Shown here: piece by piece, positions 8,789 to 56,451 of the stretch
How positions within the stretch are numbered: position 1 is the first letter of the stretch
Layout of the letters: every line of letters starts with the position of its first letter
From: Klebsiella phage KMI11
Strand: one strand, 5' to 3'
DNA: 64,000 bases
Sequence record: MN101225.1
Position numbers and translations under genes: made by a program
Notes under the pieces: model-generated
The model's database searches: none
What the model was told of the DNA's origin: nothing
What the model saw: only the letters and a program-made list of their open reading frames with translations

Positions 8789-10348
8789 TTAGATACCTTT
8801 AACCCATACACGACGGAAGTAAGCATTCTTACCAACAGAGTTGACGATAGAAGGCATACCAGAGGTAATACGACCTTTCGGCTGTTGAGCAGCAGAATCG
8901 GCGAACGGGTTAATACCGATACCGTAACGGGTTTTGAACCCCATGACCGGTTGGAAGTTCTTCGGATCGGAACCACGCAGCGGGGTCAGTGCAACATACG
9001 GAGCATAGTAGATACCAGCATCCATTTCGTTAGCACCTTTATAACCGATGGTGAAGTAATCCTGACGAGCATACTGGTCGATGTATACACGGTAGCGACC
9101 ACCCAGAACACCAGCAAATACTGCTTTAGTGGTGTCGGTATTATAACCACGACCCAGACCCTGAGCTGCCGGAGATACGTTGGTATCAACAGCTGCCAGT
9201 ACGTTAACTACGTTACGGGAAGCGATAATGAAGTTACCTTCACCGCGACCGGTCTGACGAGCGATTTCAGCGGATTCTTTGTCAATCTGGAACAGCAGAG
9301 CTTTAAAGCTTTCACCTGCCCAACGAGCACCGCGGATATCAATCGGGTCTTGGAAGTCGAATACACCGGCTTTAGAACCAATAGTCTGGGTCATACCAGA
9401 TTTACCAACCTGAGCGGAGTAGTTAATCCAGTCAACAACTTCACGGTTGATTTCCAGCATAATTTCGGTAGCCAGGATTGAACTCAGTTCAGCATCAGCG
9501 TCCATGCCATGAACAGCACGGAGGTCCTGAGCCAGTTCGATGGAATACTGTGCTTTCAGCTGACGAGATTTCGCTTCGATAGTTTGTTTATCGATACGGA
9601 AGCCCATTTCATTCCATGGGTTATCTTTAGAACCGTTAAATGCTTCTTGCAGTTCAGCAACGGAAGTAGCCATACCTTCGGCGATTTCAACTACTTTACC
9701 AGCTTCCAGAGCAGCAGTAACTGCAGCGTCCAGTTTAGCAGCATCAGTAGCGCCAGCGTCTACAGTGAAATCTTCAACAACCTGCAGATGAGCACGACCG
9801 GTCTGTGCGAAATCGTGAACAACGATATCACCAACAGTCAGAGCATCACCAGCTTTAACTGCTTCGAACTTCTCAGTTGCACCCTGACCGGAGAACATTG
9901 CATCCGGAGCGTACATCGGATGGAAAGCTTCTTTAGCACCAGCAGCCAGAGGGTCTTTGCCGTAAACAGCGCGGAGAGCGAATACCTGACCGGTTGGGTT
10001 AGACATCGGCTGTACACCACAGATATCGAAAGCAATCAGGTTAGGGATAGCACGACGAACCATACCCATAACTGCCGGGCCAATCTGGGTTACAGCACCA
10101 GAGGTCTGACCAGCTGCGATGTTCTGTGCATCATAACCATGGTCACCGCCAATTTCTGCTTCAGACAGGAAAGAACCAAATGCTTCAGCGATTTTTTCAT
10201 CGCGGTATTCCGGAGCCTGATTAATATCAGCTTCCTGGTTTTCAAAAATCTTAGCGATCAGAGCTTTTTTGCTAGCGCCAACAATTTCCGGCAGAGCTTC
10301 GTTCTCAAGCAGCGGCTGCCATTTTTCGATAAGTTTATTCTTTTTCAT
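8789..10348 (-). CDS. 23: gp23 major capsid protein
   Basis: 519 aa; MKKNKLIEKWQPLLENEALPEI...AIPNLIAFDICGVQPMSNPTGQVFALRAVYGKDP is near-identical to the recalled T4 gp23 precursor. Confidence 0.95.
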   Translation of the reverse strand: MKKNKLIEKWQPLLENEALPEIVGASKKALIAKIFENQEADINQAPEYRDEKIAEAFGSFLSEAEIGGDHGYDAQNIAAGQTSGAVTQIGPAVMGMVRRAIPNLIAFDICGVQPMSNPTGQVFALRAVYGKDPLAAGAKEAFHPMYAPDAMFSGQGATEKFEAVKAGDALTVGDIVVHDFAQTGRAHLQVVEDFTVDAGATDAAKLDAAVTAALEAGKVVEIAEGMATSVAELQEAFNGSKDNPWNEMGFRIDKQTIEAKSRQLKAQYSIELAQDLRAVHGMDADAELSSILATEIMLEINREVVDWINYSAQVGKSGMTQTIGSKAGVFDFQDPIDIRGARWAGESFKALLFQIDKESAEIARQTGRGEGNFIIASRNVVNVLAAVDTNVSPAAQGLGRGYNTDTTKAVFAGVLGGRYRVYIDQYARQDYFTIGYKGANEMDAGIYYAPYVALTPLRGSDPKNFQPVMGFKTRYGIGINPFADSAAQQPKGRITSGMPSIVNSVGKNAYFRRVWVKGI

Positions 10349-42022: not shown

Positions 42023-42109
42023 GGGGAGTTAGACCGTAGGGGTAGCGGGACAGACTGTAAATCTGTTGCTCAAAAGGCTCGAGTGGTTCGACTCCATTAC
42101 TCCCCACCA
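42023..42109 (+). tRNA. tRNA-Tyr(GUA), class II (long variable arm)
   Basis: acceptor GGGGAGU/ACUCCCC, anticodon stem ACAGA/UCUGU loop cuGUAaa, T-arm GGTTCGACT, A73, encoded CCA. Confidence 0.85.
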
Positions 42110-42115
42110 AATTTA

Positions 42116-42192
42116 GGGATACTAGCTCAGTTGGTTAGAGCACCGGACTTTTAATCCGGGTGTCCGAAGTTCGAGTCTTCGGTGTCCCACCA
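42116..42192 (+). tRNA. tRNA-Lys(UUU)
   Basis: acceptor GGGAUAC/GUGUCCC, anticodon stem CCGGA/UCCGG loop cuUUUaa, T-arm CGAAG-TTCGAGT-CTTCG, CCA. Confidence 0.85.
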
Positions 42193-42197
42193 AATTC

Positions 42198-42282
42198 GGG
42201 TCGTTGGCTGAGAGGGTAAGCGACGGACTGTTAATCCGTGTCAGAAATGACTAGGCAGGTTCGATACCTGCACGGCCCGCCA
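42198..42282 (+). tRNA. tRNA-Asn(GUU) with unusual 15-nt variable arm and 3-bp D stem
   Basis: anticodon arm ACGGA-cuGUUaa-UCCGU is identical to the E. coli tRNA-Asn anticodon arm; acceptor GGGUCGU/ACGGCCC, G73, CCA; extra GUCA-GAAA-UGAC hairpin in the variable region. Confidence 0.7.
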
Positions 42283-42536
42283 AATGAAGAAGTCAGAAGA
42301 CGTTCTGATAAAATCGTCGGCACAGAAATCCCTGGCATGGCGTTTGTATTAAGGAGTATGATTTCATCCTGCTTAATGCTTGTTCATGTTATAATTTCTT
42401 ACGGCGTTGAAAGTTCGCTTTCAGGGATACATCTTAGAGCAGAGTGTTAAACAAGATTCATCTGGTACCAAGGTGATGAGAGCCCTGTTCCCCTTTGCTT
42501 CGGCATCGTGCCAGAGTATCTCTGAAAGCGAATTAT

Positions 42537-42613
42537 GGACCTATAGTTTAGTTGGTTAAAATACTCCCCTGTCACGGGAGAGAGCACGGGTTCGATCCCC
42601 GTTAGGTCCGCCA
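42537..42613 (+). tRNA. tRNA-Asp(GUC)
   Basis: acceptor GGACCUA/UAGGUCC, anticodon stem CUCCC/GGGAG loop cuGUCac, G73, CCA. Confidence 0.85.
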
Positions 42614-42774
42614 AATAAGAACGTGGCAGTTCTTGAAGATGAGTTTGAGTCCTATAAGATAATGCCGAGGACGAAGCTGTTTGTTCCCACGGAATAAGCT
42701 CTATATTCGTAAGATTATATCTTTAGCGTGTTCTACATCAAGCTACTTGTTAGTACTTCAAGAACCCGGATAAA

Positions 42775-42851
42775 TGCGGAGTAACTTCAGTTGGTAGAAT
42801 GTTGGGCTCATATCCCGACACGCGCAGGTTCGAGTCCTGCCTCCGCCTCCA
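42775..42851 (+). tRNA. tRNA(CAU), initiator-like (fMet-type features)
   Basis: anticodon loop cuCAUau on a stem with three consecutive G:C pairs (GGG/CCC) next to the loop, as in initiator tRNA; 1:72 is a U.C mismatch; T-arm GCAGG-TTCGAGT-CCTGC; CCA. Confidence 0.65.
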
Positions 42852-42856
42852 ACAAT

Positions 42857-42931
42857 TGGACTATAGACAAGCGGTTAAGTCACCGGCCTTTGACTCCGGT
42901 ATCTCTGGTTCGAATCCAGATAGTCCAGCCA
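42857..42931 (+). tRNA. tRNA-Gln(UUG)
   Basis: U1-A72, CAAGCGGUAAG D-loop and CACCGG as in E. coli tRNA-Gln; anticodon loop cuUUGac; G73, CCA. Confidence 0.85.
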
Positions 42932-43026
42932 AATTAATATTCATTCAACGCGTCTACAGGGGTTGAACTGATCATTCTTCTCTTAATTTCGTATGAAGTC
43001 CTCATGATGGATGGAGTGAATATTGA

Positions 43027-43103
43027 TGTGGCCGTAGTTCAGTTGGTAGAACTCAGCATTGTGATTGCTGTCGTCGACGGTTCAAATCCGTCCGGTCACC
43101 CCA
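43027..43103 (+). tRNA. tRNA-His(GUG)
   Basis: anticodon stem CAGCA/UGCUG loop uuGUGau; acceptor GUGGCCG/CGGUCAC, C73, CCA; no encoded G-1. Confidence 0.8.
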
Positions 43104-43199
43104 ACAATGAAGGAATGGTGGAAAAATACACGGCCCGCAAAACGCTGTGGCTGTCGCTAAGCGAATTGTGTCTATATGACACTTCCTTCACCAAATACT

Positions 43200-43284
43200 G
43201 GAGAGTAGCGCTAGTGGTAGCAAACCGGACTTGAAATCCGGGCCATCGGAAACGGTGAGGGTTCAACTCCTTTACTCTCCGCCA
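43200..43284 (+). tRNA. tRNA-Ser(UGA), class II
   Basis: acceptor GGAGAGU/ACUCUCC, anticodon stem CCGGA/UCCGG loop cuUGAaa, long variable arm, G73, CCA. Confidence 0.85.
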
Positions 43285-43350
43285 AATTTATGAAAGTTAA
43301 ACGCTGCCCATAGCAGTGGTACATCAACAATTAGATGATTAGCTTTCCAT

Positions 43351-43426
43351 GGGAGTATAGCTCATTTGGTAGAGCTCTCGACCGATAATCGAGCGGTGAC
43401 TGGTTCGAGTCCAGTTACTCCCACCA
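43351..43426 (+). tRNA. tRNA-Ile(GAU)
   Basis: acceptor GGGAGUA/UACUCCC, anticodon stem CUCGA/UCGAG loop ccGAUaa (C33), A73, CCA. Confidence 0.8.
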
Positions 43427-43432
43427 AATAAC

Positions 43433-43507
43433 AGGTTCTTAGTATAACGGCTATTATGCTGGGCTCCAAACCCAGTGATGAGGGTTCGATTCCTTCAGGG
43501 CCTGCCA
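43433..43507 (+). tRNA. tRNA-Trp(CCA)
   Basis: acceptor AGGUUCU/AGGGCCU, anticodon stem CUGGG/CCCAG loop cuCCAaa, G73, CCA. Confidence 0.8.
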
Positions 43508-43512
43508 AATTT

Positions 43513-43587
43513 GCATCCATCGTATAACGGCTATTATAGGTGACTTCCACTCACTTGATAAGGGTTCGATTCCCTTTGGATGCTCCA
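43513..43587 (+). tRNA. tRNA-Gly(UCC)
   Basis: acceptor GCAUCCA/UGGAUGC, anticodon loop cuUCCac, T-arm AAGGG-TTCGATT-CCCTT, U73, CCA. Confidence 0.85.
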
Positions 43588-43592
43588 AATTA

Positions 43593-43669
43593 CTCCGTAT
43601 AGCTCAGTCTGGTAGAGCGTTCCATTTGGGATGGAAAGGTCGAATGTTCGAGTCATTCTATGGAGACCA
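43593..43669 (+). tRNA. tRNA-Pro(UGG)
   Basis: anticodon stem UUCCA/UGGAA loop uuUGGga; T-arm GAATG-TTCGAGT-CATTC; A73, CCA. Confidence 0.85.
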
Positions 43670-43675
43670 AATTAA

Positions 43676-43819
43676 CGGTATGACACAATACAAGATGGCG
43701 TAAGCTGAGTAGCGGGATTGCAGTCTCGTTCAGATATGCTATCGAGTATGGGTGATATATTAAACACATGGATTCTGCAAAGTCCATGTGACTCGGTTCG
43801 AGGCCGGGCATACCGTCCA
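43676..43819 (+). ncRNA. tRNA-like stable RNA candidate (about 144 nt; perfect acceptor stem, T-arm and CCA but oversized core)
   Basis: 5' CGGUAUG pairs 7/7 with 3' CAUACCG, followed by U73 and CCA; T-arm CUCGG-TTCGAGG-CCGGG; 7-bp hairpin ACATGGA/TCCATGT immediately 5' of the T stem; starts 6 nt after tRNA-Pro, matching the cluster spacing. Confidence 0.5.
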
Positions 43820-43844
43820 ATCACTTGCCATTGAGAAATATATT

Positions 43845-43997
43845 ATGAAATATTACGGCTTCAAAACATCCCATTTCGGGAAAGCATATCGTACAGAAAA
43901 CATTGATAGACGTCGAGCATATTACGAATCACTGCATAAAGCAGGACGTTCTCGTGCACGACAAGAAGGCCAAAAACAAGCGAAGGAAATAGAATGA
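43845..43997 (+). CDS. small basic protein
   Basis: ATG at 43845 (MKYYGFK...) chosen because the track ORF's earlier portion overlaps the tRNA-like element; basic C-terminus. Confidence 0.35.
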   Translation: MKYYGFKTSHFGKAYRTENIDRRRAYYESLHKAGRSRARQEGQKQAKEIE

Positions 43998-44359
43998 ATA
44001 TTTTTATTGGTGTTGCAAATAACGTAAATGCTATTACGGTGAAATTACAATGGAATCGTCCAACTAATTTTGCTTTAGGATTATGTAAATCTGAACGTGA
44101 TTTAATGCTTCATGCTGATTTTGCATACACTTTTGATGAACGCAAAGGTATGTGGGTCTGGATTAAATGCAGATACGAAGCATTAATCAAATATGAGTAC
44201 TTCAGTGAGCGTGATATTCAAGAAGTTATTGCTTATCATTCTGGCTGTAAAGTAAGTAAACTGCGTCAAGTTATTCCGTTTACTAATGCTTCAAATGTAG
44301 AAGAGCTAATTACTGATTTTAAACGAATTTATCAGGCGAAATATGATGAAAGATTCTAA
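43994..44359 (+). CDS. hypothetical protein
   Basis: 121-aa ORF, ATGA coupling. Confidence 0.45.
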   Translation: MNIFIGVANNVNAITVKLQWNRPTNFALGLCKSERDLMLHADFAYTFDERKGMWVWIKCRYEALIKYEYFSERDIQEVIAYHSGCKVSKLRQVIPFTNASNVEELITDFKRIYQAKYDERF

Positions 44360-44576
44360 AGGTCGAGACGTACAAGTTGGTGATATCGTTTTCTACGGAG
44401 AACGTACATATAATAAAGGTGGTCGTGGTTCTATGCGCTGCGGTCGTATTACAGATATTGCTTCAGGATTGGCTAAAGTAGATAACGACTACGTTGCAAT
44501 GCGAAGCAAATCATTCGTTAAGGTTTCTCCTATGTTCGCAACAATGTGGGAAAACGGAACGATTTTCGAGATTTAA
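44343..44576 (+). CDS. hypothetical protein
   Basis: 77-aa ORF. Confidence 0.4.
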   Translation: MMKDSKGRDVQVGDIVFYGERTYNKGGRGSMRCGRITDIASGLAKVDNDYVAMRSKSFVKVSPMFATMWENGTIFEI

Positions 44577-44630
44577 TGCTACAAGAATAACCTGTTATTA
44601 TTACTACATCAAAACAAACAAGGAAAAAGA

Positions 44631-44855
44631 ATGAAACGTATCGCACTGATTGTTGACCAAGAAGCTATGTTCGCTGCTACCGGTAAATTTCATCCGGTGA
44701 GTAAATTTGTTGCTCGCAGCGAGAAAATCGTTGGTCTGGTAGAAACTGTCGCAGGTGATGTAATTGTTTCTATTAAAACGTCTGAAATTTCTCCAGTAGT
44801 TAAAGTAGCAGTTGAAAATGACTTCTGGGAAGTAGCTGATTTTATGTGTGAGTAA
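44631..44855 (+). CDS. hypothetical protein
   Basis: 74-aa ORF with AAGGAAAAAGA RBS; followed by a terminator. Confidence 0.45.
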   Translation: MKRIALIVDQEAMFAATGKFHPVSKFVARSEKIVGLVETVAGDVIVSIKTSEISPVVKVAVENDFWEVADFMCE

Positions 44856-44888
44856 TTCTGCCTAGCAGGTGGATAAGCCCGACAAGGC

Positions 44889-44908
44889 GCCCTCTTCGGA
44901 GGGCTTTT
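44889..44908 (+). terminator. rho-independent terminator GCCCUC-UUCG-GAGGGC-UUUU
   Basis: 6-bp GC stem, UUCG loop, T4 run. Confidence 0.75.
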
Positions 44909-44933
44909 ATAAAAGTCATAAGATTTCTATAAA

Positions 44934-45010
44934 GGCCCTGTAGCTCAATTGGTAGAGCGTTCCCCTCATAAGGGATTGGTTGCATGTTCGAGTCTTTGCC
45001 AGGGTCACCA
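44934..45010 (+). tRNA. tRNA(CAU), elongator Met or Ile2(k2C)-type
   Basis: acceptor GGCCCUG/CAGGGUC fully paired (G1-C72), anticodon stem UUCCC/GGGAU loop cuCAUaa, TTCGAGTC T-loop (8-nt loop or imperfect stem), A73, CCA. Confidence 0.65.
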
Positions 45011-45029
45011 AATTAATGAGGAAAATATT

Positions 45030-45230
45030 ATGATGCGATTAGTTAAAGTAGTTGTAGAAGAATCTGAATACATGGGCGATAGCCGAATGATTGAAGAATT
45101 CGTTACTGTTGAGGCAGATTCTGAATCTGAAATCGCTGATAAAGTTTATCGTCATTTTGATAATATGTCTGATTCGTATGGCACAATGTATAACATTTAT
45201 CGTTTAGATGTAATAGTACATATCAACTGA
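45030..45230 (+). CDS. hypothetical acidic protein
   Basis: ATG at 45030 after GAGG; the track's upstream extension overlaps the tRNA. Confidence 0.45.
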   Translation: MMRLVKVVVEESEYMGDSRMIEEFVTVEADSESEIADKVYRHFDNMSDSYGTMYNIYRLDVIVHIN

Positions 45231-45240
45231 GGAAATTGAA

Positions 45241-45798
45241 ATGCATATTAAATTTGGACAAGTTATTCCTAAAGGCTTAGCAATGGCAATTACCACTTGG
45301 GAAAACGATGCTGATCGGTATTCTACCCAAATGGTTTATGGCTTAGAAAAAGAAGAGATTAATCAAGTAATTCACGTTCTTGAATGGTTCTCTTCTAATG
45401 GTCGGCGTGGTGAATACCTTGGAAATAATGATTACAACCATGAAGCAATTCTTGAAAAGCTTCATACTGAACAGAAGTATGTAACTCCTGAATTTTCCAA
45501 GAAATTCTTTGGCGTTGATGTTCCTGCATATGATTGTTCAGACGAAGAGTTTGATGCTTATTTAGATAACCACTATTCTTGTTCAAATGAAGTTATGTAT
45601 GCTATTCAGGCTTGGTTGGGTAATCCAATTGAATATGATTATGATTTCATGCGAGTATTTGAGAAAGTTGAAATCTTTGATATTAAAGAAGAAATTCGTA
45701 TTCCTGATGCTCCGGTTGCATTCCATATTGGAATTACGTATAAGCAGAAAGAAAGCCCATTAAAAGTTGATTGGTTGAAATACGTGAAGGAAAAGTAA
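45241..45798 (+). CDS. hypothetical protein
   Basis: 185-aa ORF. Confidence 0.5.
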   Translation: MHIKFGQVIPKGLAMAITTWENDADRYSTQMVYGLEKEEINQVIHVLEWFSSNGRRGEYLGNNDYNHEAILEKLHTEQKYVTPEFSKKFFGVDVPAYDCSDEEFDAYLDNHYSCSNEVMYAIQAWLGNPIEYDYDFMRVFEKVEIFDIKEEIRIPDAPVAFHIGITYKQKESPLKVDWLKYVKEK

Positions 45799-46248
45799 AT
45801 GGATATTGGTTCAGGTAGTTCATATCCATCATGTGCTTTGAGCAACTTTGCTCCTCATAAATTTATCTATGATGGCGTAGAATGTGCATCAATGGAGGGA
45901 TTCTTGCAGTCCCTCAAATTTTCTTCGCCTGAAATGCAAGCACATGTATGTACATTAGTTGGTAAATCGGCTAAGTTCAAAGGTAAAAAGAAACGGTGGT
46001 GGCCAACTCAAACACTTTATTGGAAAGGCGTGCCAATCCATCGTGCTTCAGAAGCGTATCAGAATTTACTGACAGGAGCATACGATGCACTTAGTAAAAA
46101 TGAAGGATTCAGAAAAGCTTTGGCTGCTACCCGGAATGCTACGCTCACTCACAGTATGGGCAAAAACAAAATTTCTGAAACGATTTTGACTGAACGCGAA
46201 TTCTGTAATCAACTTTATCGTTTGAGAAATGCTATAAATAATCAGTAA
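45799..46248 (+). CDS. NADAR/YbiA-like (DUF1768) domain protein, putative ADP-ribose N-glycosidase
   Basis: 149 aa; N-terminal block LSNFAPHKFIYDGVECASMEGFLQSLKF matches the NADAR core (LSNF..PF....F.S.EH.FQA.KF); translationally coupled to the upstream ORF. Confidence 0.5.
   Translation: MDIGSGSSYPSCALSNFAPHKFIYDGVECASMEGFLQSLKFSSPEMQAHVCTLVGKSAKFKGKKKRWWPTQTLYWKGVPIHRASEAYQNLLTGAYDALSKNEGFRKALAATRNATLTHSMGKNKISETILTEREFCNQLYRLRNAINNQ
46233..46240 (+). promoter_or_regulatory. late promoter TATAAATA upstream of the second tRNA subcluster
   Basis: exact TATAAATA 20 nt before the tRNA-like element at 46260. Confidence 0.55.
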
Positions 46249-46259
46249 TATAATTATCT

Positions 46260-46387
46260 TGTTCAGTGTTGAAATCGGTAGACATGGTGACGGACACCTT
46301 TTGAGCTCGCATATTGCATCATATGCTGGCGACGGTGGTAAATCGCTGACGGAATCAGTCGTGCAGGTTCGAGTCCTGCCTGAACAA
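46260..46387 (+). ncRNA. tRNA-like stable RNA candidate (about 128 nt) fused 3 nt upstream of tRNA-Arg
   Basis: 5' UGUUCAG pairs 7/7 with 3' CUGAACA; canonical T-arm GCAGG-TTCGAGT-CCTGC; D-loop-like AAUCGGUAGAC; about 55 nt of extra core including a GCATAT-TGCATC-ATATGC hairpin; no clean anticodon arm found. Confidence 0.5.
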
Positions 46388-46390
46388 TCT

Positions 46391-46467
46391 CGGGGCATAG
46401 CTCAGTTGGATAGAGCAGCGGACTTCTAATCCGCAGGTCGAAGGTTCGAATCCTTCTGCCTCGACCA
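46391..46467 (+). tRNA. tRNA-Arg(UCU)
   Basis: acceptor CGGGGCA/UGCCUCG, anticodon stem GCGGA/UCCGC loop cuUCUaa, T-arm GAAGG-TTCGAAT-CCTTC, A73, CCA. Confidence 0.85.
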
Positions 46468-46471
46468 TTTC

Positions 46472-46556
46472 GCATCGATGGTGGAACTGGTATACACAGG
46501 AGACTTAAAATCTCCCGCCGCAAGGATTGAGGGTTCGAATCCCTCTCGGTGCACCA
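46472..46556 (+). tRNA. tRNA-Leu(UAA), class II
   Basis: acceptor GCAUCGA/UCGGUGC, anticodon stem GGAGA/UCUCC loop cuUAAaa, long variable arm, A73, CCA. Confidence 0.85.
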
Positions 46557-46566
46557 AATTAAGACC

Positions 46567-46652
46567 CCGGGAATAGTTGCTTAAACTTAGTGAGGAATTC
46601 AACGGCAGATACGTCTGTGCAACTACATAAGGTTCGAATCCTTATTTCCGTC
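46567..46652 (+). ncRNA. tRNA-like element (86 nt; T-arm and 6/7 acceptor pairs, noncanonical core) abutting tRNA-Thr
   Basis: T-arm TAAGG-TTCGAAT-CCTTA; 5' CCGGGAA versus 3' UUUCCGU (C1.U72 mismatch); internal long-range AGTTGC...GCAACT helix and GCAGA-TACG-TCTGT hairpin; no CCA. Confidence 0.4.
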
Positions 46653-46656
46653 TTAA

Positions 46657-46732
46657 GCCGATTTAGCTCAGCTGGTAGAGCGCTTCACTTGTAATGAAGA
46701 TGTCGCGGGTTCGACTCCTGCAATCGGCACCA
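46657..46732 (+). tRNA. tRNA-Thr(UGU)
   Basis: acceptor GCCGAUU/AAUCGGC, anticodon stem CUUCA/UGAAG loop cuUGUaa, T-arm GCGGG-TTCGACT-CCTGC, A73, CCA. Confidence 0.85.
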
Positions 46733-53415: not shown

Positions 53416-53949
53416 ATGAAACACTTAACTCCCATTTATTTGACCCTGATGCATGCTTTCAGAGACGCTGCAGACAGACGATTGAATAATCCCAACTACA
53501 GTTTTTATGAACCGTCTTGCCTTATGCGAGAGTACGGTACCCTTCGTCTAGACGGTGGAAGACAAACCGGAAAGACTGCAGCCTTATGTCAATTCGCTAC
53601 CGATTGGTTGCTTGAAGATGGTTCGGTTATAATCTTATCTACTCGATACACACAATCATCTGAATTGATGGAAGGTATTCTACGAGAATATAATTCATCG
53701 CATTTAATTAATAAATTACCGGCTAACGAGATAGCTAAATCAATTGTTCCGATGACAATCAGGGAATTTCTATCCAATGATTCCTCTTACAAGTTTAGGG
53801 GAAGAAAGTTTGGAAGAGCATTAATTATCATTGAAGAACCAATGAAAGTTCCCGATATGATGAAGTTCTATGATATGTACCAGGAAGCTATCAGATGGTC
53901 TATGCCTAATGATACCTTACCTTTATTTTTCGTGATAGGAATGCAATGA
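53416..53949 (+). CDS. P-loop NTPase (Walker A/B) protein
   Basis: 177 aa; Walker A DGGRQTGKTAA; Walker B-like ALIIIEEP. Confidence 0.5.
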   Translation: MKHLTPIYLTLMHAFRDAADRRLNNPNYSFYEPSCLMREYGTLRLDGGRQTGKTAALCQFATDWLLEDGSVIILSTRYTQSSELMEGILREYNSSHLINKLPANEIAKSIVPMTIREFLSNDSSYKFRGRKFGRALIIIEEPMKVPDMMKFYDMYQEAIRWSMPNDTLPLFFVIGMQ

Positions 53950-54257: not shown

Positions 54258-54730
54258 AGTGTCCTCCACATTTAGTTGAAAGCTTCTGCGATTGGTTCAG
54301 TAATTCTGGCGAGCAAGATTTCTATGAAGCCCATCAGAATGGAACTTGGAATGAAACCACAAAACAGTGGGAAGAAGCTACAACGTATATAGGCACTCGC
54401 GGATATGGAGTTGACGAGCCTATTGAAATTGTAGAGTACGATAAAGAAACTGATGAAGAAATACTTTATGCTAATGATACCAGAGAACGTTTATGGCGAG
54501 AATCTGAATTAGAAGCAGAAGTTATTCGTCTTAAAGAAGAATTAAAAGGACCAACGGGTTTTGCTACGTGGAAAGACGCTGCTATTTCTGAACGTTTAGC
54601 ACGGGTAAAATTGATGCCAGAGGGTAAAATCTCGTACTTACAAGCTGCATCCAAGTTCCATTCTACTGAGTGGAATACTATGGACGTAATTACCGCATAC
54701 ATGCATGGTTGGAATAAAGAATCTAATTAA
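54239..54730 (+). CDS. hypothetical protein
   Basis: 163-aa ORF. Confidence 0.45.
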
Positions 54731-54738
54731 GAGGAAAT

Positions 54739-55101
54739 ATGAAAGCATATCAAATTCTTGAAGGTGAACTTAAAGGCACCATTTACATCGAAGATGGTGA
54801 TGACGCACGAGTAATCGTTTCAAAAGTTCTTAAAGAAGATACTATTACGGATGCTGAAACTTTTTATGGCTACAAGGCTCGTGAAGTAGAAATTGAATAC
54901 CAGCCAACGGTAAAAATTGAAGGCGGTCAGCACCTGAACGTTAACGTGCTGCGTCGCGAAACCCTGCTGGACGCGGTTGAGCATCCGGAAAAATATCCGC
55001 AGCTGACCATTCGTGTTTCTGGCTACGCGGTACGCTTCAACTCCCTGACGTCGGAACAGCAGCGCGACGTTATCGCTCGTACTTTCACAGAGGCACTATA
55101 A
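54739..55101 (+). CDS. grcA: GrcA/YfiD-like autonomous glycyl-radical cofactor protein (chimeric composition)
   Basis: C-terminal 60 aa ([58 protein letters not shown]) nearly identical to E. coli GrcA with the glycyl-radical RVSGYAV motif; DNA composition switches from AT-rich to GC-rich host-like codons around 54905. Confidence 0.8.
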
Positions 55102-55376
55102 TGTCAATTGAAGATATTAAAGGATATAAGCCACATACCGATGAAAAGATTGGTAAAGTGAATGCTATCAAAGACGCAGAAGTCCGTCTTGGTCTTATCT
55201 TTACTGCTCTTGAAGAAGAGGCATTAATTAATTACCAAGTGTCAGTCAATGAACCTAAGCAGGTACTCGATGAAGCATACGAACGTATTGCCCAGATTCG
55301 TACAGCAAAACAGAAACTGAAGGAAGCTTCTATGTGGGCTTGCCGTGCAGTGTTCTGTCCAGAAGAAAAATATTAA
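55101..55376 (+). CDS. hypothetical protein
   Basis: 91 aa, ATAATG coupling. Confidence 0.45.
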   Translation: MSIEDIKGYKPHTDEKIGKVNAIKDAEVRLGLIFTALEEEALINYQVSVNEPKQVLDEAYERIAQIRTAKQKLKEASMWACRAVFCPEEKY

Positions 55377-55439: not shown

Positions 55440-55898
55440 ATGTCAACTAACCCAGAAGTATTCATTCGCAGAACTAAACTGCGTCGTAAGTTTGAGGAAG
55501 CTTTTCGCTCTTTGAATTTATCAGTTCGTGCCCGAGCTAAGGCTGAGGGCAAAGAGCCTTTCTTCACTAAGTACTCTGATCATTTGTTGGACCGTGCTAT
55601 CCAACGTGAAATTGATGAAGAGTATGTATTCTCTGTTCTTTCCAAAATTCCTAATCATCTTAAAGAAATTAATGAATTTTTAGCAATGCCTTGGCTTCCA
55701 ATTGACCCAAAAGACATTGATGAAAATATCGAGTATAAGCCAATGCGGTTAGAAATTACGGATGGAAATCTGTGGCTAGGATTTACCATGGATATTCCAA
55801 GACCAGGAAAAGGACCTAGTATAAAGTGTCGTATGGCATTCGTTAATGATAAACGTTTGAAAGGTAAAATCAGCACAAAAGTTATACACATTAATTGA
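55440..55898 (+). CDS. hypothetical protein
   Basis: 152-aa ORF after the promoter cassette, GGAGAATGAAC RBS. Confidence 0.5.
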   Translation: MSTNPEVFIRRTKLRRKFEEAFRSLNLSVRARAKAEGKEPFFTKYSDHLLDRAIQREIDEEYVFSVLSKIPNHLKEINEFLAMPWLPIDPKDIDENIEYKPMRLEITDGNLWLGFTMDIPRPGKGPSIKCRMAFVNDKRLKGKISTKVIHIN

Positions 55899-55905
55899 GG
55901 TAAAC

Positions 55906-56451
55906 ATGAAAAAAGCGCTTATCGGTCTAATGGCCTTGTGTTCAACGGCCTTTGGGTCTGAGCCAACTTTCAGTAATGTTCAACTTGACAACTTACATTA
56001 CGCATATAATTTTGGTGAACAATATCAAAAATCCGGAAAGGAAAAATCTCCGCATAACCGATACGATAATAACGGCTTAGGATATATAATGGCTGCTATA
56101 TCATGGAAAGAATCTTCGGCAGGAGCCAATTTAAAAGCAGGAAAGGGGCATCATTCTTATGGGGTTTTTCAAAATTACTTACCCACCGTTAAGGCCAGAG
56201 CTAAACTGGAAGGTAAAAACCTTAGTGATTCTGAAATAAGAAAAATGCTTAAATCCAGACGTAATTCTGCGGAGTGGGCATATATTGAGCTTTCATATTG
56301 GTTAAATATACATAACGGCAATATGCGAAAAGCTCTTGCTAGTTATAACGCAGGATGGAATGTCAAAAGAGGAAACTCTTATGCGTCAGATGTCCTAGAG
56401 AAAGCTCATTTCTTAAAGAAACATAAAATGCTACATATAAAGGTGGAATAA
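55906..56451 (+). CDS. secreted lytic transglycosylase (SLT-domain)-like protein
   Basis: 181 aa; signal peptide MKKALIGLMALCSTAFG; SLT motifs in order: E-S (AISWKESSAG), GVFQ (GLMQ-like), SYNAGWN (AYNAG-like). Confidence 0.5.
   Translation: MKKALIGLMALCSTAFGSEPTFSNVQLDNLHYAYNFGEQYQKSGKEKSPHNRYDNNGLGYIMAAISWKESSAGANLKAGKGHHSYGVFQNYLPTVKARAKLEGKNLSDSEIRKMLKSRRNSAEWAYIELSYWLNIHNGNMRKALASYNAGWNVKRGNSYASDVLEKAHFLKKHKMLHIKVE

Follow-up and report, generated by a model that had tools for sequence, protein, structure and literature searches.

Where the two unlike parts of one short phage gene came from, and when, is the question raised by the grcA-like gene at positions 54,739 to 55,101 of a 64,000-nucleotide stretch of Klebsiella phage KMI11 (sequence record MN101225.1; this whole stretch is called the window below). 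Judged from its sequence, the gene is the phage's own copy of grcA, which encodes the 14-kDa "spare part" of pyruvate formate-lyase (PFL), a protein with a glycyl-radical loop. The gene and its function are already known; for the host-specific patch in its 3' half we found no earlier report in the literature searched. Very probably, a whole-gene grcA was acquired long ago, a 3' tract of it was later overwritten by DNA passing from host to phage, and the protein has, by orthology, a role in PFL rescue. The gene, the ribosome binding site (RBS) in front of it and its parts, with lengths in nucleotides (nt) and amino acids (aa), are:

54731..54734, plus strand: Shine-Dalgarno GAGG of the grcA-like gene, 4 nt before the ATG, as read from the sequence
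54739..55101, plus strand: grcA-like gene, 120 aa, orthologue of T4 vs.6/Y06I, autonomous glycyl-radical cofactor
54739..54918, plus strand: phage-type 5' half, codons 1-60, AT-rich, the old and diverged GrcA N-terminal region
54919..55082, plus strand: host-derived patch, codons 61-115, with the glycyl-radical domain encoded in Klebsiella grcA sequence
55021..55023, plus strand: codon of Gly95, the predicted radical-bearing glycine of RVSGYAV, aligned with the conserved glycine of GrcA (6OWR) and PflB
55083..55101, plus strand: phage-type 3' end, which holds the downstream Shine-Dalgarno; stop codon TAA at 55099-55101

The composition break and its closest bacterial match

The region comes from a Jiaodavirus (JD18-like), a T4-like Klebsiella phage of the Tevenvirinae, for which Klebsiella and not E. 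coli is the host to consider. Over the 1.66 kb surrounding the grcA-like gene, identity is 100% to the Klebsiella phages JY1 and phi1_146043 and 99% to JD18, whose copy is labelled "autonomous glycyl radical cofactor GrcA" in RefSeq. The DNA of the gene itself is 100% identical in JY1, phi1_146043 and Roth01, and 137 phage records are at least 95% identical to it across its full length. Its GAGG lies directly after the stop codon (54728-54730) of an upstream 163-aa open reading frame (ORF). A preliminary description of this DNA had given the ORF at 54739-55101 and the RVSGYAV motif, and both are present exactly.

The sole Pfam domain in the 120-aa protein is Gly_radical (PF01228; aa 61-101, E 9e-18). 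In phmmer searches, aa 20-120 match the nuclear magnetic resonance structure of E. coli GrcA (6OWR; E 1.5e-38), and aa 57-119 align with residues 696-758 of PflB (1H16/1CM5; E 1.5e-27), the next glycyl-radical enzyme reaching only 1e-11. The protein thus has what defines the GrcA/YfiD family (InterPro IPR011140; T4 Y06I): it is a small stand-alone glycyl-radical protein of the about 14-kDa class, has the RVSGY motif, and combines a PflB-like C-terminal region with a GrcA-related N-terminal region. It resembles bacterial GrcA/YfiD (E. coli P68066, 6OWR; Klebsiella GrcA) in its small stand-alone form, its RVSGYAV motif and the profile homology of its N-terminal region. It differs in being 7 residues shorter, in an N-terminal half that is about 21% identical, and in the phage codons of its 5' half; the phage gene also lies in a lytic phage operon, whereas bacterial grcA adjoins ung.

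Within the gene, the G+C content (GC) and the G+C content of third codon positions (GC3) change together, from 0.36 and 0.24 in gene nt 1-165 to 0.54 and 0.58 in nt 166-363. GC3 is 0.23 in codons 1-60 and 0.64 in the patch, close to the 0.67 of the same part of Klebsiella grcA. In sliding 90-nt intervals, GC rises from about 0.37 to 0.53-0.57 between 54880 and 55089, and the GC-richest 150-nt stretch of the whole 64 kb lies inside the grcA-like gene (0.587; mean of the window 0.40, standard deviation 0.044). The switch in composition that had been described within the gene is thus seen in both sliding GC and GC3 as an abrupt break, extreme for this 64-kb genome stretch.

When the gene is compared with Klebsiella grcA in a maximum chi-square scan, the host-like tract spans gene nt 181-344 (54919-55082). 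Identity to Klebsiella grcA is 98.2% inside the tract (161/164) and 41% outside it (81/196), and the maximum chi-square is 131, compared with a highest value of 16.8 among 200 permutations. When the whole 64 kb was searched by megablast against 5,426 E. coli genomes, the sole match was 54917-55085, and the rest of the window matched none of them. The tract thus shows localised breakpoints, a donor-like composition that departs from that of the phage, and donor specificity, as expected of gene conversion, and host identity is neither uniform nor uniformly low across the gene. The junction anticipated in the preliminary description does exist, but the scan and the alignment move it from about 54905 to about 54917-54919, and the host-type DNA does not reach the stop codon as had been thought, the last 19 nt (55083-55101) being phage-type.

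Klebsiella, not E. coli, provides the closest match to the patch. It is identical at 161/164 positions to grcA of contig L087, the chromosomal gene of a Klebsiella pneumoniae-complex genome, and at 144/164 positions to E. coli grcA. Of the bacteria sampled (about 85 species from GTDB, plus E. coli), Klebsiella is closest, and other Enterobacteriaceae reach 142-150/164. Searched with blastn, 5,426 complete E. coli genomes match only gene nt 179-353, always in grcA and at 86-87% identity. Over its last 180 nt, the phage gene shares 93.9% identity with the Klebsiella allele (L087), with 3 mismatches in the first 160 nt and 8 in the last 20. At 16 sites E. coli differs from all three Klebsiella reference alleles, and this phage has the Klebsiella state at 15 of them. 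Of the C-terminal 60 aa, 59 are those of Klebsiella GrcA (protein P0122) and 56 those of E. coli GrcA. The proposal of a recombination junction with a host gene therefore stands on the 98.2% identity to Klebsiella chromosomal grcA, and E. coli as the donor does not (86.9% DNA identity); the C-terminus, which had been called essentially identical to E. coli GrcA and E. coli-like in codon use, differs from it at 4/60 aa and has Klebsiella-type codons.

The Klebsiella references came from a protein search (P0122) and contig look-ups (L086-L088, L179-L180), Klebsiella lying outside the E. coli genome collection. P0122 is named Klebsiella variicola, and its cluster also has proteins of K. pneumoniae and K. 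quasipneumoniae. K. pneumoniae was not among the best 80 loci of the first GTDB scan, and Klebsiella grcA came from the second protein search. Codon 105 (TCG, 55051-55053) encodes Ser in this phage and Pro in most relatives and most Klebsiella GrcA (LTSEQQ vs LTPEQQ). Phage Boboto and a rare Klebsiella variant (P0122, 4 contigs) also have Ser there, which may be a polymorphism shared with the host or the outcome of a parallel C-to-T change. Among the sampled bacterial loci, a contig with a Gram-positive label (L019, NZ_JBQPOM010000029.1, "Vagococcus sp. WN89Y") has an Enterobacteriaceae-type grcA that falls in a Klebsiella/Kluyvera protein cluster; the assembly probably carries a wrong label or is contaminated.

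None of the host genomes searched matches the 5' half at the nucleotide level, and this half is 72-74% identical to T4 and RB69. BLASTP of the phage against the bacterial N-terminal halves alone gave no alignment. Comparison of profiles built from nine phage and eleven bacterial GrcA N-terminal halves with hhalign did recover homology, with a probability of 96.5% (E 8.5e-10, 48 columns, 21% identity). The whole gene is therefore an old GrcA homologue rather than an unrelated phage domain fused to a host fragment, and it is chimeric in age, not in ancestry. These profiles, with the 6OWR match, agree with the earlier view of a full-length GrcA homologue, and the AT-rich 5' part with phage codon usage and a diverged N-terminus was also rightly described (GC3 0.23-0.24, only about 21% protein identity).

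Counterparts in T4 and other phages

The orthologue in T4 is vs.6/Y06I, also 120 aa long and set in a common neighbourhood (vs.4/Acb2, regB, vs.1). The two genes align over 97% of their length at 78.5% DNA identity, the proteins are about 82% identical, and T4 has the same two-layer structure with a host-identical patch in the 3' part. The patches differ in source and extent: that of T4 is from E. coli and runs almost to the stop codon (gene nt 179-356), whereas the Klebsiella patch of this phage ends 19 nt before it. RB69 vs.6 is likewise an orthologue, and the last 180 nt of T4 and RB69 vs.6 are 97.2% identical to E. coli grcA. The T4 patch matches E. coli strain D9 at 175/178 positions, and 2,419 E. 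coli genomes have a grcA with 99.4% identity to it; that of Mosigvirus moha matches E. coli grcA at 175/175 (gene nt 179-353). T4, RB69, moha and LF82-1 all agree with E. coli at 16/16 diagnostic sites. The comparison with other T4-like phages that had been suggested thus shows an E. coli version of the patch, 98-100% identical, in T4, RB69 and moha. A longer Mosigvirus patch, suggested by a BLAST alignment starting at gene position 155, was rejected; the scan gives 179-353, and the extra stretch is weak similarity.

Among GenBank phages, 489 records match E. coli grcA at 95-99%. Klebsiella grcA is matched at 90% or more by 141 phage records, and all those among the matches listed are Klebsiella phages. 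In a survey of 80 IMG/VR loci and reference phages, the host-identical patch is limited to Jiaodavirus, Tequatrovirus and Mosigvirus-type lineages. The genes of Karamvirus, Slopekvirus, T5-like, jumbo and other phages are only 71-86% identical to any sampled bacterial grcA and have low GC3. The grcA genes of T5-like (Demerecviridae) and other phages belong to the same family and share a similar MKAYQ... start and the glycyl-radical C-terminus, but have no fresh host patch, their 3' part being 71-79% identical to sampled bacterial grcA, with low GC3. The 12 of 16 E. coli states in CC31 were not accepted as a patch: they reflect a composition effect of codons ending in A or T, and overall identity to E. 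coli is 83%.

Several other observations emerged from these comparisons. Klebsiella phage phiKp_11, a Slopekvirus (L004, 251-613), encodes a GrcA with 100% identity to the common Klebsiella type (LLDAVEH...TESL) over the C-terminal 60 aa, yet its DNA is only about 81% identical to Klebsiella grcA and has AT-rich codons. Either the transfer was old and has decayed, or selection holds the protein to the form of its host. In a related protein associated with E. coli (P0015), the motif is the E. coli-type LEDAVKH. The 113-kb record MG065642.1 (H204), named "Campylobacter phage A148", has a T5-type grcA whose identity to E. coli grcA equals that of T5-like phages of Salmonella and E. coli; its Campylobacter host label looks doubtful.

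Origin, age and possible renewal of the patch

We suggest the following course of events. An ancestor of the T4-like phages would have acquired a whole grcA long ago, and its 5' half would have drifted to phage composition and 21% protein identity. The glycyl-radical domain, being strongly constrained, would have kept its DNA close enough to that of host grcA for the two to undergo homologous recombination in infected cells. Klebsiella grcA would then have overwritten 164 nt in the Jiaodavirus lineage, and E. coli grcA the corresponding tract in Tequatrovirus and Mosigvirus, most likely by gene conversion with host chromosomal DNA. That grcA is the sole patched site in the window is probably due to this extreme protein constraint, which keeps phage and host DNA recombinable. 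Each conversion would restore near-identity with the host gene and make the next one easier, so that the patch is probably refreshed from the host alleles that the phage meets.

The 5' end of the tract would be the point where similarity gives out, and its 3' end the start of phage sequence required as the RBS of a translationally coupled downstream gene. The last 19 nt lie within ACT TTC ACA GAG GCA CTA TAA, where the host has ACC TTT ACC GAA AGC CTG TAA; 8 of the 19 differ from Klebsiella grcA, and the protein ends in TEAL in place of TESL. This segment contains a GAGG (55090-55093) inside the grcA-like gene, 7 nt upstream of the ATG of the next gene (55101-55103), which overlaps the grcA stop codon as TAATG. 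The Mineola record labels the corresponding GAGG as the RBS of the downstream gene. The need for this RBS is plausibly why the tract ends before the stop codon and TEAL replaces TESL.

The two halves of the gene differ in age. Between T4 and RB69, identity is 90% for the 5' half and 98.2% for the patch. Between this phage and T4 it falls to 72% for the 5' half and 86% for the patch, the latter value being nearly the identity of the Klebsiella and E. coli grcA patches to each other (145/164, 88%). The patches are thus much younger than the phage lineages, and each was acquired separately, from the host concerned. The same identities exclude a single ancient chimera that diverged along with the hosts. 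Among eight Jiaodavirus genes, nucleotide diversity (pi) is 0.020 in the 5' half and 0.048, or 2.4 times as much, in the patch; flanking genes were discarded as a baseline, their ungapped pi of 0.22-0.30 probably being inflated by indels and differences in gene content.

For comparison with the hosts, we used 33 host patch haplotypes from a degenerate-pattern scan of metagenomes for host-type grcA. The patch of phage Mineola is identical at 164/164 positions to one metagenomic Klebsiella chromosomal allele (L190), whose contig is collinear with the Klebsiella ung-grcA-helicase region (96.8% over 1.8 kb). The patch of Nispero matches the L190 group at 162/164, and the best match of Roth17, at 158/164, is another, more distant host lineage (L212). 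The eight Jiaodavirus patches vary at 22 sites and 15 K. pneumoniae-complex haplotypes at 19, and 13 of these sites are common to both sets (hypergeometric P = 0.0018). These matches and shared polymorphisms therefore favour several conversions from different host alleles. It is conceivable, and we put it forward tentatively, that the 3' patch evolves in concert with the host gene, being copied again and again from the chromosome of whichever host is infected.

A simpler history would have one transfer per host genus, into the ancestor of Jiaodavirus and into that of the E. coli T-even phages, followed by vertical descent, recombination among phages and decay from GC to AT. The patch limits common to all eight Jiaodavirus genes agree with it, as does the similar number of differences between Mineola and JIPh_Kp122 in the 5' half (4/180) and in the patch (6/164), and most of the bases at which Roth17 and Boboto deviate from known Klebsiella alleles (8/9 and 6/9) have changed from GC to AT, as amelioration predicts. 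It does not account well for the exact match of Mineola to a bacterial allele when other Jiaodavirus patches differ at several sites, for an overlap of phage and host polymorphism above expectation, for a patch more diverse than the 5' half, or for T4 and RB69, which are 10% apart in the 5' half and yet each at least 98% identical to present-day E. coli alleles. On balance we regard a single transfer per genus as unlikely, though a serious contender.

Accounts that need no overwriting of the tract, or that reverse its direction, are far less probable. A recent capture of the whole gene, with halves that differ by weak N-terminal and strong C-terminal constraint, would fit a C-terminal domain that is nearly invariant across bacteria and an N-terminal half that is variable. 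Protein constraint gives synonymous sites no protection, however, and the patch is nonetheless host-identical at 161/164 positions, with GC3 of 0.64 against 0.23; lineages without a fresh patch keep the domain at 71-86% DNA identity to sampled bacterial grcA, phiKp_11 has a 100% Klebsiella-type protein domain at 81% DNA identity, and the break is abrupt, which together make such a capture very improbable. Even less credible is convergence, in which host-preferred codons were selected in a highly expressed domain with no transfer of DNA. The patch does use CTG, CGC and GCG codons, and grcA is a highly expressed host gene with biased codons, but the identity is allele-specific: at the synonymous or near-synonymous diagnostic sites, Klebsiella phages have 13-15/16 Klebsiella states and E. 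coli phages 16/16 E. coli states, Mineola equals a Klebsiella allele throughout, and the 5' half of the shared messenger RNA has no such codon bias. That bacterial grcA took its 3' half from phage copies has a parallel in the two-way exchange reported for cyanophage psbA (PMC1484495). Here, the patch is of host-type composition and stands out from the rest of the phage, and host grcA sits in a conserved ung-grcA-helicase context, is uniform in composition, and shows no allele with a phage-type 3' end among those compared; the diversity of its alleles is equal in the two halves (pi 0.037 and 0.038) and so gives no sign of flow from phage to host. We consider this direction highly improbable. 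Least probable of all is an artefact of assembly or contamination in which host reads were merged into a phage contig. Host DNA does occur in phage preparations and the patch is host-like, but the in-frame structure recurs in hundreds of independently sequenced phages (137 + 489 records), including the T4 reference genome, with the reading frame, both junctions and the phage-type 3' end conserved.

As for function, PMC8683613, which cites Wagner et al. 2001, states that the PFL activase acts on E. coli YfiD and on T4 Y06I, and that these then restore activity to PFL that oxygen has cleaved at the radical glycine; it names YfiD and Y06I as the two biochemically validated PFL spare parts. In this phage, the host activase PflA would install the radical on Gly95, and the small protein would dock into PflB that had been cleaved by oxygen at its own radical glycine. 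PFL activity would thereby be restored, and fermentative energy metabolism would continue during infection at low oxygen. We infer this role by orthology with T4 Y06I, and because 59/60 aa of the domain are those of Klebsiella GrcA and its similarity to PflB 696-758 is specific.

Some points weigh against overwriting from the host, its recurrence or the proposed function. T4-like phages degrade host DNA early in infection, which might limit such exchange, and recombination between a T4-like phage and the chromosome is read here from sequence patterns. T4 recombination uses short homologies of about 50 bp, and it rescues markers from cloned DNA. The support for recurrent conversion is moderate: it comes from eight phage sequences, and shared third-position polymorphisms could in part be mutational hot spots. 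The GC-to-AT character of most non-host bases in Roth17 and Boboto would fit decay after a single older event equally well. The reference set for the donor names neither K. aerogenes, K. oxytoca nor Raoultella grcA. Lastly, a comparative paper of 2006 proposed a role in nucleotide metabolism instead (PMC1524935).

Neighbouring genes, precedent and meaning

The gene order around the grcA-like gene matches the vs-regB region of T4, except that vs.5, which lies between vs.6 and vs.4 in T4, is absent here, and the Acb2-like gene directly follows grcA. The T4 vs.4 product is presumably an anti-CBASS nucleotide sponge. The neighbouring genes, and other features of the window that bear on its composition, are:

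53416..53949, plus strand: 177-aa protein, phrog_1488, with a GGRQTGKT P-loop-like motif
55101..55376, plus strand: Acb2-like gene, T4 vs.4 counterpart, 91 aa; Acb2/Tad1 hairpin domain PF24729, E 5e-17
55440..55898, plus strand: RegB endoribonuclease, PF10715, E 1.6e-65
55906..56451, plus strand: 181-aa protein in the position of T4 vs.1, phrog_600
42023..46732, plus strand: cluster of 16 transfer RNA (tRNA) genes, coinciding with two other GC-rich stretches
8789..10348, minus strand: 519-aa ORF in a GC-rich region, with 150-nt intervals reaching GC 0.55 and no nucleotide match to E. coli genomes

The protein at 53416-53949 has a weak match to the ATPase region of the terminase large subunit (phrog_2, E 1.5e-6). 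Other GC-rich spots lie at 8.8-10.0 kb, 42.0-43.1 kb and 46.3-46.8 kb, the latter two in the tRNA cluster, and none of the three matches E. coli genomes by megablast. From its size, the product of the ORF at 8789-10348 is a candidate major capsid protein.

The closest analogue of the patch is found in cyanophages. Intragenic recombination between host and phage in cyanophage psbA was reportedly described by Zeidner and colleagues in 2005. As with psbA and psbD, we find a host-derived metabolic gene in a T4-like phage with exchange inside the gene; in those genes, patchy G+C content is accompanied by statistical signs that host and phage copies have exchanged segments (Sullivan et al. 2006, PMC1484495). 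The present case differs in several ways: there is a single short tract (164-178 nt) with sharp ends and 98-100% identity to the gene of the present host, the remainder of the gene is far more diverged, only the host-to-phage direction is supported, and the phages are enterobacterial T-even phages, T4 included. We found no description of a host-identical patch in vs.6/grcA in the literature searched, although the T4 genome review (PMC150520) may hold an earlier notice.

The patch has some practical consequences. A paper of 2026 chose grcA as a conserved marker for typing Straboviridae coliphages by the polymerase chain reaction (PCR) and quantitative PCR (PMC12845203). Primers in the 3' half of the gene would also amplify host DNA, since the 3' 175 nt share 98-100% identity with chromosomal grcA of E. 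coli. Similarly, filters that remove host reads could clip the patch region from phage genomes. With its link to the genus of the host, and possibly to the allele, the patch could help to assign hosts to T4-like contigs from metagenomes. There is also a functional question, whether the radical domain needs to match host PflB and PflA exactly; the host types differ only in LLDAVEH vs LEDAVKH.

T4, the best-studied lytic phage, has a 178-nt tract that is 99.4% identical to the E. coli chromosome, and its Klebsiella relative has the Klebsiella version. The two patches together point to homologous exchange from host to phage in phages that degrade host DNA, which could be studied in a tractable system. 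If the patch is indeed copied repeatedly from the host, it would be a built-in record of the recent host of a phage, down to the allele, and short homologous tracts would permit routine recombination from host to phage even where the phage destroys the DNA of its host.

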